Source: a virus (lineage: Duplodnaviria; Heunggongvirae; Uroviricota; Caudoviricetes). Taken from it: a stretch of DNA of 64,000 nucleotides. The notes beneath the pieces were generated by a model, which made no database searches, was not told where the DNA came from, and saw only the letters and a program-made list of their open reading frames with translations. Of this stretch, positions 4,777-49,704 are shown piece after piece; the stretch's first letter is position 1; every line of letters begins with the position of its first letter. Made by a program: the position numbers and the translations under genes. The stretch is from IMG/VR virus record IMGVR_UViG_2695420423_000004, one strand, 5' to 3'.

Positions 4777-5577
4777 ATGCAACAAACATTCAATGCGGAT
4801 ATGAATATATCAAACCTTCATCAAAATGTCGATCCTTCAACCACTCTGCCCGTTATTTGTGGTGTTGAAATTACGACCGACCGCGCTGGCCGTTACAACC
4901 TTAATGCTCTACACAGAGCGAGCGGACTCGGTGCCCATAAAGCGCCAGCTCAATGGCTAAGAACGCTGTCAGCCAAACAGCTCATCGAAGAGCTTGAAAA
5001 AGAAACTATGCAGAATTGCATAGTTTCGTTCGAAGGCCGTGGCGGCGGCACTTTTGCCCATGAATTGCTCGCAGTGGAGTACGCAGGCTGGATTTCTCCC
5101 GCGTTTCGGCTGAAGGTAAACCAGACATTTATCGACTATCGAGCCGGAAGATTACAACCTGCTATTCCGAAGAGCCTCCCAGAAGCTCTCCGTTTGGCTG
5201 CTGACCTGGCAGAGCAAAAGCAACGGCTGGAGCAAAAAATGCTGATGGATGCACCTAAAGTCGAATTCGCCGAACGCGTTGCTACCGCCAGCGGGGTTCT
5301 AATCGGCAACTATGCCAAAGTGCTCGGCCTGGGCCAAAACTATCTCTTCACCTGGTTGCGTGATAACGGAATTCTGATCGCAACCGGTGAACGCAGGAAC
5401 GTCCCCAAACAAGAATACATATCCCGTGGGTATTTCACCCTTAAAGAAACCGTGATCGATACAAGCAATGGAAGCAGGATTTCTTTCACGACTCGTATAA
5501 CCGGCAAAGGTCAGCAGTGGCTGATGAAGCGATTGCTTGATGCTGGTGTGCTGGTACCTGTCGCGGCAACGCGCTAA
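4777..5577 (+). CDS. kilA: KilA (KilA-N DNA-binding domain plus KilAC domain)
   Basis: 266 aa, same size as P1 KilA; precedes repL; C-terminus paralogous to Ant. Confidence 0.8.
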   Translation: MQQTFNADMNISNLHQNVDPSTTLPVICGVEITTDRAGRYNLNALHRASGLGAHKAPAQWLRTLSAKQLIEELEKETMQNCIVSFEGRGGGTFAHELLAVEYAGWISPAFRLKVNQTFIDYRAGRLQPAIPKSLPEALRLAADLAEQKQRLEQKMLMDAPKVEFAERVATASGVLIGNYAKVLGLGQNYLFTWLRDNGILIATGERRNVPKQEYISRGYFTLKETVIDTSNGSRISFTTRITGKGQQWLMKRLLDAGVLVPVAATR

Positions 5578-5606: not shown

Positions 5607-6452
5607 ATGCTGGCTAAAGTCACTTTCCTGAGCTGTATAACGATGAGCGATTTTACTTTTTCTGGCTATGAATTGGCCTTCTTTGTAACACACTCCGGTC
5701 TATCCCGTAGCGCCGGGCATATCCTGTCGCAATGTGCAAATCTCGCGGCAACAACCAGTGAATACTTCATTCACAAGCCCCACCGCCTGATCGCGGCAGA
5801 AACTGGTTATAGCCAATCAACCGTCGTTCGTGCATTCCGTGAAGCTGTAAACAAAGGAATTCTATCTGTAGAGATTGTTATCGGCGATCACCGTGAACGT
5901 CGCGCTAACCTGTACCGGTTTACACCATCCTTTTTGGCCTTCGCACAACAAGCCAAAAATGCGCTGATTGAAAGCAAATTAAAGATCTCTTCAGCGGCAA
6001 CCAAGGTTAAAGCTGTTCTCGCTAAGACATTGGCTTTATTTAATTTTTTATCCACACCCCCATGTCAAAATGATACCCCCTCCCCCTGTCAGGATGACGT
6101 GGCAATAAAGAATAAGAAGTCACAAGTTAAAAAAACAAAAAGATCAGTTTCCGGCGGTGCCGGAACGACCAGACTCAAAAAATTGACTTCATGGATCGCT
6201 GAGGCAAAAGCAAAGGCTGACAATCTGCGGTTATCCAAAAAACGCGCTCAAAAACATGAGTTCAAGCAGAAAGTAGAGGCGGCAGCGCGGAAATATGCTT
6301 ACCTGAAGGACAAGCGTTCTCCTGATATTGGCGGGATATCAAACTTCGATAATCTGCCGCATTGCATGACGGTAAACGAAGCTCTTAATGCGGTTTTAGC
6401 CAAAAATAAAGATAACGAAAAATGGGGTATACCGGCAGGATTCAGGGGATGA
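5607..6452 (+). CDS. repL: RepL lytic replication initiator (oriL expected inside)
   Basis: 281 aa, same size as P1 RepL; directly downstream of kilA under the Op53-like operator. Confidence 0.8.
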   Translation: MLAKVTFLSCITMSDFTFSGYELAFFVTHSGLSRSAGHILSQCANLAATTSEYFIHKPHRLIAAETGYSQSTVVRAFREAVNKGILSVEIVIGDHRERRANLYRFTPSFLAFAQQAKNALIESKLKISSAATKVKAVLAKTLALFNFLSTPPCQNDTPSPCQDDVAIKNKKSQVKKTKRSVSGGAGTTRLKKLTSWIAEAKAKADNLRLSKKRAQKHEFKQKVEAAARKYAYLKDKRSPDIGGISNFDNLPHCMTVNEALNAVLAKNKDNEKWGIPAGFRG

Positions 6453-6502
6453 TAGATTGCTCTAATCTGGAGTCACCTGGCGTTTTCAGTTTGAGGTCGG
6501 AG

Positions 6503-6769
6503 ATGCAATCTGATTTTTTACAGTTAGCGATCGCTTTTGCAGGATATGTTTGTATTGGCTTCTGTGTATACATGATCAGCCGAAAAATGCTTGTCGATAT
6601 CGACCGCAAAGAACGAGCAGAGGAGATCTTAGTATGGATTTTCTTTGGCGCGGTCTGGCCATTAGGGATCATGTTTGCTGCAACATTTCTTCGATGTGGA
6701 TATTCACCCTTCCAGGTGATTTCTATAGAAAAAAAGCCAGACATTGATACAATCGTTGCGGGTGCTTGA
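6503..6769 (+). CDS. small membrane protein (hypothetical)
   Basis: Track ORF 6422..6769; internal ATG at 6503 has a GGAG upstream; two hydrophobic segments. Confidence 0.3.
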   Translation: MQSDFLQLAIAFAGYVCIGFCVYMISRKMLVDIDRKERAEEILVWIFFGAVWPLGIMFAATFLRCGYSPFQVISIEKKPDIDTIVAGA

Positions 6770-6870
6770 GGCTATCTGCTTCAGGCATGACCCGAAAAGC
6801 AGATAGAAGAAAGCCCCAGATAACATTACGCGTCCTGCAAGACGCTTAACATTAATCTGAGGCCATATCT

Positions 6871-7077
6871 ATGCTTAGCATACGTAGATTAGCCTCTTAC
6901 CGACCAAAAGGTCAAGGAGAAGCAGGCTATGAAGCAGCAAAAAGCGATGTTAATCGCTCTGATCGTCATCTGTTTAACCGTCATTGTGACGGCACTGGTA
7001 ACGAGGAAAGACCTCTGCGAGGTACGAATCCGAACCGGCCAGACGGAGGTCACTGTCTTCACAGCCTACGAATCTGA
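6871..7077 (+). CDS. mok-like overlapping reading frame of the hok locus
   Basis: 68-aa ORF overlapping the hok frame in a different phase, as mok does in hok/sok loci. Confidence 0.35.
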   Translation: MLSIRRLASYRPKGQGEAGYEAAKSDVNRSDRHLFNRHCDGTGNEERPLRGTNPNRPDGGHCLHSLRI

Positions 7078-7084
7078 AAGGTAA
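6929..7084 (+). CDS. hok: Hok/Gef-family type I toxin (51 aa)
   Basis: Hand translation MKQQKAMLIALIVICLTVIVTALVTRKDLCEVRIRTGQTEVTVFTAYESER is near-identical to the Hok/Gef family (too short for the ORF track); a cggggag-tga-tccccg hairpin follows at 7094-7109. Confidence 0.75.
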   Translation: MKQQKAMLIALIVICLTVIVTALVTRKDLCEVRIRTGQTEVTVFTAYESER

Positions 7085-7384
7085 GAGACCTGGCGGGGAG
7101 TGATCCCCGTCACTCTTCGTGTGTCTGGTAACCTCAATGCACCCTTTTCTCCCCAATAGTGTAAAACACAATGAAGTAGAAGGAGTTATTTCACATCATG
7201 CAAAGATTCAGACCATATCTCCCAATAGCCTTCGCGACATGATGACTTTCAGAAATATCTAGCTGTTAACAAAATTCCATACTTGCTTTGCTAATACCAC
7301 CTAGATTATATATGGAAAAATACACCTAAAACTTAAACAAATTATATCCACAACAAACATCCATCTATTAGGATTAAAATTAAT

Positions 7385-7431
7385 TTAATAATAAATAATA
7401 CAACACCGGTTCATTTTCTAACAAACCGGTG
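7385..7431 (-). terminator. intrinsic terminator downstream of the MazG-like gene
   Basis: caccggt...accggtg hairpin (7404-7431) followed on the minus strand by a T-rich run. Confidence 0.4.
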
Positions 7432-7438
7432 GGCACCA

Positions 7439-8431
7439 TTATTGGAATAACTTACTGATTACATTAAAAACATTAAGGGCGTTACTTGCCACACTAGACA
7501 TCTTGGCTGAATTTTTTTCGATTGAGTCAAGAACACTTTCGACTTCCGATAAAGTTCTTCTGCTATCTGCATCTTTTCCTGAGTCTATCGCATCTTTAAT
7601 TGCAGATATAGCAGACTCTAAATTCTCCTTAAACTCACCTGTCGTCTCATCCTTCAAGAGAAGTTCTAACTCTTGTTTAAGTTTTTCCAATGATGCTCTT
7701 TTCTCATCAGTTTTACTAATCTTCCCTGAATAACTGACACAAACACATTCTCTTTTATTGCAGACAGGACAACCATTTAGATAATAACTTTCAAACGCCT
7801 CGCCAAGATCATCATCTTTAAAAATAATCCCCCATAAAGAAAACAACCAAGCATATATATCAGCACACTCTTCATGAAGATTTTCTTTGTTGTAATTTTT
7901 ATCTTCAATTGATTTAGCATAAGCCTCTTGCAACTCACCCAACTCTTCGAATAACCTGGATGAATGATAAAACCCACCAAAAGTAGACCAAATGGTTCTA
8001 TTCGACGGATAGATGTCATTAATCATTCGTGGCGCATAAGGCGGAAATTGCATAGGTTTAATAGCGTTATATTTATTGAAAAGCTCATCTTTAATTCCTT
8101 TTGCGCTTCTTATTTTCTCTGGCTTTCTGTGTGTTTGAGAACAGGAACAAGGCGCCCCTAAGCAATAAGGACAGCAACTAGGAAATTTTTTATAAAATGC
8201 TTCCTGTGGTTGTATTTCAAGTTTATCACAGATTGCAAAAAGCCAAGACAATGCTTCTATATAGGTATTTTTTAATAATTCTTTATCCTGATTACCATCA
8301 CGAATAAACTCACGTGTTAAATAAGCTGTTTTCCTTGTCAGATAAGAGTACATATACTCAAATGATTTTTCTTCATTTTTTTTGCTGTAAATACCTACAA
8401 TAATATTGCTCATATCATTGATACGTAACAT
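7439..8431 (-). CDS. MazG-like nucleotide pyrophosphohydrolase domain protein with Cys-rich clusters
   Basis: Track ORF 7439..8509 starts at GTG; ATG at 8431 (MLRIND...) has an AAGAGGA site. Motif EELGELQEAYAKS...LHEECADIYAWLFSL is MazG-like; CCPYCLGAPCSCS and CPVCNKRECVCV clusters; AT-rich. Confidence 0.6.
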   Translation of the reverse strand: MLRINDMSNIIVGIYSKKNEEKSFEYMYSYLTRKTAYLTREFIRDGNQDKELLKNTYIEALSWLFAICDKLEIQPQEAFYKKFPSCCPYCLGAPCSCSQTHRKPEKIRSAKGIKDELFNKYNAIKPMQFPPYAPRMINDIYPSNRTIWSTFGGFYHSSRLFEELGELQEAYAKSIEDKNYNKENLHEECADIYAWLFSLWGIIFKDDDLGEAFESYYLNGCPVCNKRECVCVSYSGKISKTDEKRASLEKLKQELELLLKDETTGEFKENLESAISAIKDAIDSGKDADSRRTLSEVESVLDSIEKNSAKMSSVASNALNVFNVISKLFQ

Positions 8432-8728
8432 GACATTCCTCTTAAATAAGCCAATACTTCCTAGAACCATATATGCTTCGACAAAGATTAACGGACATCT
8501 TGCCTTCACAAACTTTGACGCTACATAAATTTAACCATGTGCATACTAAATATTTAAGGTAGAAAAGTATAGGAGTATTTATTAATAGGTAACTGTTAGT
8601 TTACACTCACTTCATACCAGAGTATTTACAAGATGTTATTTTACTCTATTCGCTAGGCGGTGGAATGCGGTTGTATCAAGGGGAGGTAAACCTCCCCCGA
8701 AGAAGATTAAAAGTACAAGGGATAACAC

Positions 8729-49102: not shown

Positions 49103-49324
49103 ATGCAATCCATTAACTTCCGTACCGCGCGTGGCAACCTTTCTGAAGTGCTCAACAATGTTGAAGCCGGGGAAGAGGTTGAAATCACCCGCAGAGGCCG
49201 TGAGCCAGCAGTAATTGTCAGCAAGGCTACTTTCGAAGCCTACAAAAAAGCGGCGCTGGATGCTGAATTTGCATCCCTGTTTGACACCCTGGACTCCACC
49301 AACAAGGAACTGGTTAACCGATAA
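49103..49324 (+). CDS. phd: Phd antitoxin
   Basis: [73 protein letters not shown] recognised as P1 Phd (73 aa). Confidence 0.9.
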
Positions 49325-49704
49325 TGAGGCATATATCACCGGAAGAACTTATTGCGCTTCATGATGCGAATATAAGCCGCTACGGCGGCCTGCCGGGAAT
49401 GTCTGATCCGGGTAGGGCAGAGGCCATTATCGGGAGAGTTCAGGCCAGAGTTGCCTACGAAGAGATCACCGACCTTTTCGAAGTCTCCGCCACCTACCTG
49501 GTGGCTACAGCGAGAGGGCATATATTCAATGATGCCAATAAGCGTACCGCGCTAAACAGTGCGCTGCTATTTCTACGCCGTAACGGGGTGCAGGTATTTG
49601 ATTCACCTGAACTGGCAGACCTTACCGTAGGCGCTGCGACTGGCGAGATATCTGTATCTTCTGTCGCCGACACGTTACGTAGATTGTATGGTTCTGCGGA
49701 GTAG
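49324..49704 (+). CDS. doc: Doc toxin (Fic-fold kinase)
   Basis: 126 aa, recognised as P1 Doc; overlaps the phd stop. Confidence 0.9.

Follow-up and report, generated by a model that had tools for sequence, protein, structure and literature searches.

A probable hok-mok-sok type I toxin-antitoxin module carried as cargo by a P1-like phage-plasmid

Introduction

The founding member of the hok/sok systems is the hok/sok locus (parB) of plasmid R1. In R1 the mok frame overlaps hok out of frame, and the Sok RNA is antisense to the translation-initiation region of mok. The work of the Gerdes laboratory describes a pairing between the 5′ and 3′ ends of the mRNA, through the tac and fbi sequences, and a sok promoter that overlaps the SD region of hok. 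The phd-doc module is a type II system, consisting of a protein antitoxin that is degraded by ClpXP and a kinase toxin.

The closest studied relative of the locus described here is hokW-sokW (mokW), which is carried by the Stx2 prophage Sp5 and by phage 933W. It has been shown to be a working pair of toxin and RNA antitoxin (PMC8621323). Following deletion of hokW-sokW, growth arrest occurred approximately 40 minutes later and phage release was halved, and a lysis-assisting role was assigned to the pair (PMC8621323).

The DNA analysed here, referred to as the window, is a stretch of 64,000 nucleotides with a hok locus close to the repL gene. The kind of system, its subgroup and the exact toxin in its exact genomic position are already contained in public annotation, where hundreds of plasmids have the toxin recorded as HokD. 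The public records of these plasmids annotate the hok ORF only and omit mok, Sok and the boundaries of the hok mRNA. The coordinates given here complete the annotation of mok, Sok and the mRNA ends, with little significance beyond correct annotation. No paper on hok/sok in P1-like phage-plasmids was found in the literature searched, where the mentions of hok concern other plasmids; such a paper may exist.

Genomic setting of the locus

The following features lie on the 5′ side of the hok locus:
4777-5577: kilA, with KilA-N and ANT domains
5607-6452: repL, directly 5′ of the hok locus
6704-6719: terminator-like hairpin with a T run, just 5′ of the hok promoter

The 64-kb window is a P1-like phage-plasmid. 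It contains the c4 antisense RNA and tRNA genes, and phd-doc is located at 49103-49701, with 100% (Phd) and 99.2% (Doc) identity to the P1 sequences. When the stretch from repL to bplB was used as a query, the aligned parts, repL included, were 97.9% identical to reference P1, and the P1 record holds a repL CDS at the position equivalent to that of the window repL. Similarity to reference P1 ends at approximately 6467, within the C1 operator Op55/Orlf, where the window reads ATTGCTCTAATCTGGAG and P1 reads ATTGCTCTAATTATAAC. Similarity to other hok loci is confined to the stretch from approximately 6748-6760 through 7144. The hok module thus has sharp boundaries. The terminator-like hairpin at 6704-6719 may insulate hok against read-through from repL.

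The window contains a single hok locus, located directly 3′ of the lytic replicon kilA-repL. This position would suit a module whose main role is lytic. On induction Sok would vanish and Hok would damage the inner membrane early, leading to faster growth arrest and lysis and to the release of more phage. The closest characterised relative, hokW-sokW of Sp5, behaves in this way (PMC8621323), and lambdoid and Stx prophages commonly carry hok loci of this subgroup. However, the Sp5 effect is only two-fold, and nothing visible in the sequence connects sok transcription to the induction of P1. P1-like elements are plasmids, on which post-segregational killing is the classical and directly selectable function of hok/sok. 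A mainly lytic role is thus considered rather unlikely, although it is compatible with stabilisation and the roles are not exclusive.

The repL-bplB interval is equivalent to the ‘variable region 5’ of a survey that covered 77 P1-like elements (PMC9603915). Its cargo is variable, consisting of rlfA/rlfB/pmgF in reference P1, rapA/rapB in P7 and an IS in RCS47. The interval is a cargo hotspot, with different accessory genes in different P1-like elements, and in many of these elements variable region 5 holds a type I toxin-antitoxin module where reference P1 has rlfA/rlfB/pmgF.

Residence in a cargo hotspot would also be in keeping with phage defence by exclusion or abortive infection. An invading phage that shuts off host transcription would allow Sok to decay, and Hok would kill or cripple the cell before the infection cycle is completed. 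In the part of PMC8621323 that cites the work, hok/sok of R1 on a high-copy plasmid is credited with a 42% reduction in T4 plating and a reduction of about 85% in plaque size. The protective effect was modest and depended on a high copy number, while P1 prophages exist at low copy number, and the locus showed no feature specific to defence. Defence is very unlikely to be the main function of the module. Stabilisation of the plasmid prophage is the reading preferred here.

The toxin gene and the mok frame

Two overlapping reading frames form the coding part of the locus:
6929-7084, plus strand: hok toxin gene of 51 aa, with the SD sequence AAGGAG at 6914-6919, the AUG at 6929 and the last base of the stop codon at 7084
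6871-7077, plus strand: mok ORF of 68 aa, in the +1 frame relative to hok, with the SD sequence GAGG at 6859-6862 and the AUG at 6871

The Hok protein matches the Pfam family PF01848 (HOK_GEF) with 78.7 bits against a cut-off of 22 (E 2.4e-22), and the match covers the whole 42-position model. It also matches PHROG 251, ‘MokW-like host killing’, with 110.7 bits. Against the NCBIfam Hok subfamily model the score is 49.5, under the cut-off of 73 for that model. The translation is identical to WP_001313475.1, ‘type I toxin-antitoxin system toxin HokD’, and to AXF39175.1, ‘MokW’. In Pfam, neither the Mok product nor RepL had a match, and the same held for the MazG-like protein encoded on the 3′ side of the locus. 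The neighbours of hok were likewise without a match in NCBIfam, except for a chance-level, far sub-threshold one for the MazG-like protein.

The 68-codon mok ORF spans both the SD sequence and the AUG of hok. Its start codon is kept in nearly all of the 31 loci of the family alignment described below. In hokW, the HokD-type loci, most HokC-type loci and the Photorhabdus loci, the mok AUG lies 57 nt 5′ of that of hok and in frame with it, so that Mok is an extended Hok of 68-70 aa. The frame comparison found mok in frame in 933W and in the recovered loci L006, L007, L010 and L014.

The window differs from this pattern by one extra base in GGTCAAGG, which gives a mok-hok offset of 58 nt. The same offset is found in the near-identical loci L004 and L005, and also in L024 and L026. 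In the window the extra T falls within GGTCAAGG at 6910-6917 and shifts mok to the +1 frame, in which Mok becomes a peptide unrelated to Hok (68 aa in the window). The in-frame mok, a trait of the HokD/HokW subgroup, is consequently absent in the window, L004 and L005 as the result of a 1-nt insertion. The sequence of Mok is not conserved across the loci; what is conserved is reading across the hok start. A conserved mok frame that crosses the hok start would fit the accepted model of translational coupling.

The hok mRNA and its fold

The signals and structural elements of the hok mRNA are as follows:
6726-6753, plus strand: hok promoter found by scan, with a -35 TAGAAA, a 16-nt spacer and a TG-extended -10 TACAAT (9/12 matches, with TG)
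6760-7144, plus strand: regulatory unit of the hok mRNA, with GGGUGCUUGAGG at its 5′ end, fbi at its 3′ end and a predicted start at approximately 6760
6760-6771, plus strand: tac (5′ translational-activator) box, paired with 7132-7144 in the full-length minimum free energy (MFE) fold
7132-7144, plus strand: fbi (fold-back inhibition) box CCUCAAUGCACCC, paired with the 5′ end of the mRNA
6894-6900, plus strand: CUCUUAC box, paired with GUAAGAG at 7081-7087 at the hok stop codon and closing the coding region (helix 4)
7092-7111, plus strand: conserved GC-rich stem-loop of the 3′ UTR, GGCGGGGA-GUGA-UCCCCGUC (helix 14)

In the relatives, a -10-like hexamer lies equally far from a conserved GGG start. 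The Rfam model RF01794 matches 6760-6934 on the hok-sense strand over the full length of the model, with a score of 113.9 bits (gathering score 59). This match supports the homology of the region and says nothing on the strand of Sok. A placement of Sok on the plus strand, drawn from the plus-strand Rfam ‘sok’ match, was rejected, as the model ends at the hok AUG and sokW, which is annotated and has been studied by experiment, is antisense.

The structure was examined in an alignment of 31 loci, made up of the window mRNA, hokW of 933W and 29 loci recovered from genomes of Escherichia, Shigella, Kluyvera, Citrobacter, Pantoea, Photorhabdus and others. A consensus structure was obtained with RNAalifold on a MAFFT alignment, and the controls consisted of partners slid by 1-3 columns and of 500 shuffles. 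The helices returned by RNAalifold comprise the 5′-3′ closing helix, leader hairpins, a helix sequestering the hok start, the CUCUUAC/GUAAGAG helix and the stem of the 3′ UTR. Across the 31 loci, 98.0% of cells hold standard pairs, against 35-46% in the slid controls. Compensatory double changes were recorded at 17 pairs, against 0-5 in the slid controls. None of the 500 shuffles matched the observed value on four of five measures, while the fifth, the number of further pair types, was reached by 159 of them.

The individual helices contribute differently to this signal. Helix 4 (CUCUUAC/GUAAGAG) is 100% paired and almost invariant, and hence provides little covariation evidence. Helix 14, the 3′ UTR stem-loop, is paired in 97% of cases and has two pairs with a compensatory change among the 31 loci. 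Position 4 of the tac-fbi helix covaries, with U-A in 18 sequences and C-G in 11. MAFFT offsets the second half of this helix between the E. coli-type loci, which have one bulged base, and the Photorhabdus-type loci. Column-based counts therefore cover just 6/12 tac-fbi pairs, and the remainder was tested sequence by sequence. In all 31 loci the 5′-terminal 14 nt pair best with the 3′-terminal 16 nt, as compared with the other 16-nt windows tested on the same mRNA.

When the mRNA was truncated from its 3′ end in silico, the 5′ end switched to a local hairpin with 6778-6793 in the MFE fold; no clear unmasking of the mok SD sequence was seen in the MFE folds of the truncated mRNAs. For tac and fbi to pair, fbi need not be terminal on the mRNA. 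The GC-rich stem-loop at 7092-7111 is not followed by a U run. Its candidacy as the hok terminator was rejected on this ground, and as a conserved internal stem situated 21 nt 5′ of fbi.

The Sok antisense RNA

Two features were assigned to the opposite strand:
approximately 6879 to approximately 6809, minus strand: Sok antisense RNA of about 71 nt, transferred through the alignment from the annotated sokW of 933W
6886-6915, minus strand: sok promoter, assigned by alignment to relatives, with a -35 TTGACC at 6915-6910, an 18-nt spacer and a -10 TAATCT at 6891-6886

In the 933W record sokW is annotated as a 71-nt RNA antisense to the leader. In its predicted fold, the window Sok has a single-stranded 5′ tail of 15 nt, followed by one long hairpin and then a U-rich tail. 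The stability of this fold, -30.4 kcal/mol (z = -4.56), was not equalled by any of 200 shuffles. Sok overlaps both the mok SD sequence (6859-6862) and the mok AUG (6871).

The -35 and -10 of sok are kept across the 31 loci. A generic sigma-70 consensus scan found the hok promoter and did not report that of sok, and the assignment of the latter therefore rests on homology. The scan missed it because the -10 matches the consensus at just 3/6 positions. The -10 TAATCT aligns with TAACCT of sokW, which was mutated experimentally for the ‘pro-less’ construct (primers YO-421/422, PMC8621323). Takada et al. reported that the promoter-less sokW construct unmasked the toxicity of HokW (PMC8621323). At the level of sequence, an antisense Sok gene is present opposite the mok initiation region.

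Much of this agrees with the first-pass annotation of the region, which had proposed a hok/mok-type type I locus beside repL on an element also carrying phd-doc. The Hok/Gef toxin ORF that it read at 6929-7084 is confirmed by PF01848 (78.7 bits over the full model). Alignment to the family gives, besides this match, identity at 47/51 positions with HokW and at 48/51 with HokD-type sequences. Both this ORF and the overlapping out-of-frame mok-like ORF of 68 aa at 6871-7077 are contained in the ORF list, repL (5607-6452) is directly upstream, and phd-doc was found at 49103-49701. The antisense promoter and sok RNA fold looked for on the minus strand are both predicted, the former at 6915-6886 and the latter with the z-score given above. 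The GC-rich hairpin, placed at 7094-7109, is real, and that span proved to be the core of a stem-loop that extends over 7092-7111. Chance does not account for any of these features.

Distribution and the MazG-like cassette

Positions 6700-7260 were compared with PLSDB, and the hok allele was counted at an identity of at least 95%. The query matched 570 plasmids, approximately 477 of them at or above this threshold, and also 83 phage records. Most of the matched plasmids (457/570) are typed as non-mobilizable, and the examples examined among the top matches are IncY. In most plasmid matches the similarity ends at window position 7147-7156, and only ten plasmids match through the junction.

The DNA beyond this junction, at approximately 7157-8700, forms a cassette with a MazG-like gene. 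It was found in 17 PLSDB plasmids only, all of them at least 99.7% identical. The encoded protein has a weak match to NTP-pyrophosphohydrolase (PHROG 2245, E 4e-6). The GC content of the cassette is 34.1%, against 49.9% for the hok module. In relatives of the MH422554 type, hok is followed directly by a terminator and bplB. The suggestion in the first-pass annotation that hok may have arrived together with the AT-rich MazG-like gene is contradicted by the plasmid counts (approximately 477 against 17), by the difference in GC content and by the MH422554-like relatives, which have hok, terminator and bplB without the cassette. Given these counts, hok was resident first and the cassette was acquired later in a sub-lineage. 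The module itself (6748-7144) differs from that of plasmid CP074369 by one base. High identity of this kind among plasmids reflects recent common ancestry and supports selection only weakly.

A bidirectional terminator, AAAAAAGCUCC-CGAA-GGAGCUUU, lies between the cargo and bplB in reference P1, MH422554, L004 and L005. In the hok-bearing relatives it starts approximately 18 nt 3′ of fbi. A terminator within approximately 45 nt of fbi is present in L004-L007, L010, L017-L024 and MH422554. The window lacks the post-fbi terminator of its relatives, which is replaced by the MazG-like cassette, and no terminator-like site was found on the plus strand between 7100 and 8800. As a result, the 3′ end of the hok mRNA and the timing of its activation are uncertain, and the primary transcript of hok may extend, in antisense, through part of the MazG-like gene or beyond. 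A terminator after fbi is usual in the hok/sok family and is not defining. It is not required for membership, since the functional hokW locus likewise has no obvious terminator in the 45 nt after fbi.

The GC-rich hairpin of the 3′ UTR is also a site of insertion. Seven of the 17 plasmids with the MazG-like cassette were missing from the full-length junction matches of the 6700-7260 query. In both sister plasmids examined from these seven, IS421 lies within the hairpin. The hokC locus L016 shows ends of the same IS at the same stem, and the hairpin is therefore a recurrent IS target. The window holds its undisrupted form.

The lost terminator and the insertions could be taken to mean that the locus looks intact and is crippled. 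Long read-through antisense into the MazG-like gene would cause processing-dependent activation to fail, and the locus would be a decaying passenger, like most chromosomal hok loci of K-12. Pedersen and Gerdes are said to have found in 1999 that the K-12 loci were inactivated by nearby IS elements, which would count in the same direction. Against this, the coding and regulatory elements of the window are all intact, with the single base difference from CP074369 over the whole module. The tac-fbi pairing can also form with fbi away from the 3′ end, and hokW functions without an obvious terminator after fbi. A crippled locus is accordingly judged improbable, and the reading of an intact, stabilising module is retained.

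Proposed mechanism and role

On the genes, signals, pairings and covariation described above, the locus, part of the cargo between repL and bplB on a P1-like phage-plasmid, is likely to be a hok-mok-sok type I module that is intact and belongs to the HokD/HokW subgroup. Its most likely role would be post-segregational stabilisation alongside phd-doc. Expression, RNA half-lives, toxicity and role are attributed to it by homology.

The mechanism proposed is that of R1 hok/sok and hokW-sokW, transferred by homology. A stable hok mRNA would be made from the promoter at 6726-6753 and would be kept translationally silent by the pairing of tac (6760-6771) with fbi (7132-7144). Slow trimming of the 3′ end would take off fbi, and local refolding of the 5′ end would then expose both the ribosome-binding site of mok (6859-6873) and the target of Sok. 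While the element is present, the short-lived Sok (6879 to approximately 6809) would pair with the leader, blocking the translation of mok, and the duplex would be cleaved. No Hok would be made, as the translation of hok is expected to depend on ribosomes reading mok. Should sok be lost or no longer transcribed, Sok would decay first and the matured mRNA would be translated. The 51-aa Hok would insert in the inner membrane, after which the cell would stop growing or die.

Since the same P1-like phage-plasmid carries phd-doc (49103-49701), a second addiction-type module is plausible. For a plasmid prophage of low copy number, stabilisation is what one would most directly expect, and it would not be exclusive with an aid to lysis or with phage exclusion. 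In these carriers of resistance genes, hok/sok may add to phd-doc in making the element hard to lose.

It may also be asked whether the module is tuned to coexist with the hok/sok copies of resident prophages and to serve the lytic cycle of the phage, which seems improbable at present. Among close relatives, no other part of the module diverges nearly as much as the Sok recognition segment at 6863-6884. Were the module so tuned, this divergence would stop chromosomal SokW and SokD RNAs from neutralising it. The position after the lytic replicon, together with the loss of the terminator in this lineage, might then couple Hok to induction and aid lysis in the manner of hokW.

Relation to described hok/sok systems

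The module at approximately 6748-7144 is 87.5-90.5% identical in nucleotide sequence to the annotated mok/hok/sok loci of 933W, VT2-Sakai and Rac, and its homology to hokD loci covers the same span. Within the HokD/HokW subgroup, DNA identity over the module is 86-90.5%. Compared with hokW-sokW, nucleotide identity is 87.5% over the whole module (approximately 6757-7144), and Hok is identical at 47/51 positions. The two loci share the order of tac, Sok hairpin, mok start, sok promoter, hok, GC hairpin and fbi, as well as the length and position of Sok, and both are carried by a temperate phage. The 5′-tail/target segment of Sok is only 64% identical between them, whereas the flanking parts are 93-96% identical. 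MokW is an in-frame N-terminal extension of HokW with 70 aa, whereas mok of the window is in the +1 frame and encodes an unrelated 68 aa. The extra T gives the window an improved sok -35, TTGACC, in place of TTGCCT in sokW. The carrier of hokW-sokW is an integrated lambdoid prophage, and that of the window locus is a plasmid prophage.

The same architecture and presumed mechanism are found in hok/sok (parB) of R1, and both are located on low-copy plasmids. The fold and pairings of the window mRNA are the structural hallmarks of the R1 hok mRNA, and the out-of-frame Mok is also as in R1. Hok is only 42% identical to R1 Hok, and the Sok hairpin of the window is longer. Post-segregational killing has been demonstrated for R1; for the window locus the role is assigned by homology.

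The hokD gene (relF) of the E. coli K-12 Qin prophage supplies the closest protein name in NCBI annotation, and Hok is identical at 48/51 positions to the HokD-type sequences recovered (L006 and others). The relBE-linked hokD lacks the hok leader, mok and sok, with unrelated sequence upstream in L012, whereas the window has the complete regulatory unit. The label ‘HokD’ is therefore one of similarity and not of equivalence. The phd-doc module of P1 is an addiction module that shares the element with hok/sok, and its presumed benefit, the killing or arrest of plasmid-free cells, is shared as well. As a type II system, it is unrelated to hok/sok in both sequence and mechanism.

Boundaries and neighbourhood of the hok cassette

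Compared with reference P1, the hok cassette has its left edge within the C1 repressor operator Op55/Orlf (window 6456-6472). The first 11 of the 17 operator bases are retained (ATTGCTCTAAT) and the remainder is different. In P1, rlfA/rlfB may be subject to immunity control; the cargo in the window may be too, if C1 can still bind the altered operator.

6422-6769, + strand: ORF upstream of hok; small protein with two TM helices and a usual length of 81 aa, PHROG 3772 (function unknown)

This two-helix protein is frameshifted in the window by a 1-nt deletion at 6692-6693, where TTCTTC-GATG stands against TTCTTCTGATG in CP074369 and MH422554. The shifted ORF extends into the hok promoter and the start of the hok mRNA. 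The deletion could be a true mutation or a sequencing error.

On the right, an AT-rich cassette has taken the place of the bidirectional terminator separating hok from bplB.

7157-8700: AT-rich MazG-like cassette, 34.1% GC
7439-8509, minus strand: MazG-like gene, 356-aa product, PGAP name ‘MazG-like family protein’

The 356-aa protein has a weak match to the NTP-pyrophosphohydrolase PHROG 2245 (E 4e-6), no match in Pfam and a chance-level match only in NCBIfam. A role in phage counter-defence or as a nucleotide-signal hydrolase is a guess. The only carriers of the cassette in PLSDB are 17 plasmids, all of which are P1-like with at least 99.7% identity.

Hok fragments 100% identical to the window Hok were also observed on two very small contigs from assemblies of unrelated genera, one of 275 bp assigned to Acinetobacter idrijaensis and one of 431 bp assigned to Xanthomonas pisi. 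These most likely represent assembly contamination with enterobacterial or P1-like DNA, not real occurrences.

The hok 3′ UTR hairpin

The conserved GC-rich hairpin in the hok 3′ UTR is interrupted by IS421 (IS4/IS186-like) in both of the sister plasmids examined.

L052 1086-2500 (plasmid CP020936) and L053 (plasmid CP063732): IS421-interrupted hok hairpin, equivalent to window 7092-7111

In these plasmids, the fbi box, which pairs with the 5′ end of the mRNA, is split off from hok by the element. Five further plasmids with the MazG-like cassette, absent among the matches that align through the hok/MazG-like boundary, may be in the same state. A chromosomal hokC locus (L016) has the same IS ends in this stem. 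IS insertion into the hairpin is therefore recurrent, and the IS421-carrying alleles are natural mutants of the hok 3′ end. In the window itself, the single base difference from plasmid CP074369 across 6748-7144 is T for C at 7110, which converts a G-C pair of the hairpin to G-U.

The hok leader and its antisense target

The Rfam family RF01794, named ‘sok antitoxin (CssrC)’, matches window 6760-6934 on the hok-sense strand and its consensus terminates at the hok AUG. It is therefore a model of the hok mRNA leader and not of the antisense Sok RNA, and strand calls based on it are to be inverted.

Among close HokD/HokW-type relatives, divergence within the module is greatest in the target of the single-stranded Sok 5′-tail (window 6863-6884; A2 columns 106-131). 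Mean identity is 65% there, versus 84-89% in hok and in the leader parts on either side of the target. The pattern is consistent with diversified antisense specificity, which would restrict cross-neutralisation among co-resident hok/sok copies.

The mok reading frame in the Hok family

Comparison of the mok frame at window 6910-6917 and at loci L001 and L006-L044 revealed that the relation of mok to hok is variable within the family. The aligned mok ORF ends after 19 codons in L017, L018 and L023. In the window, L004, L005, L024 and L026, a single additional T places mok in the +1 frame and at the same time improves the sok -35 element. In hokW (the Stx phage Sp5/933W copy), HokD-type, most HokC-type and the Photorhabdus loci, mok is in the hok frame, giving an extended Hok of ~70 aa.
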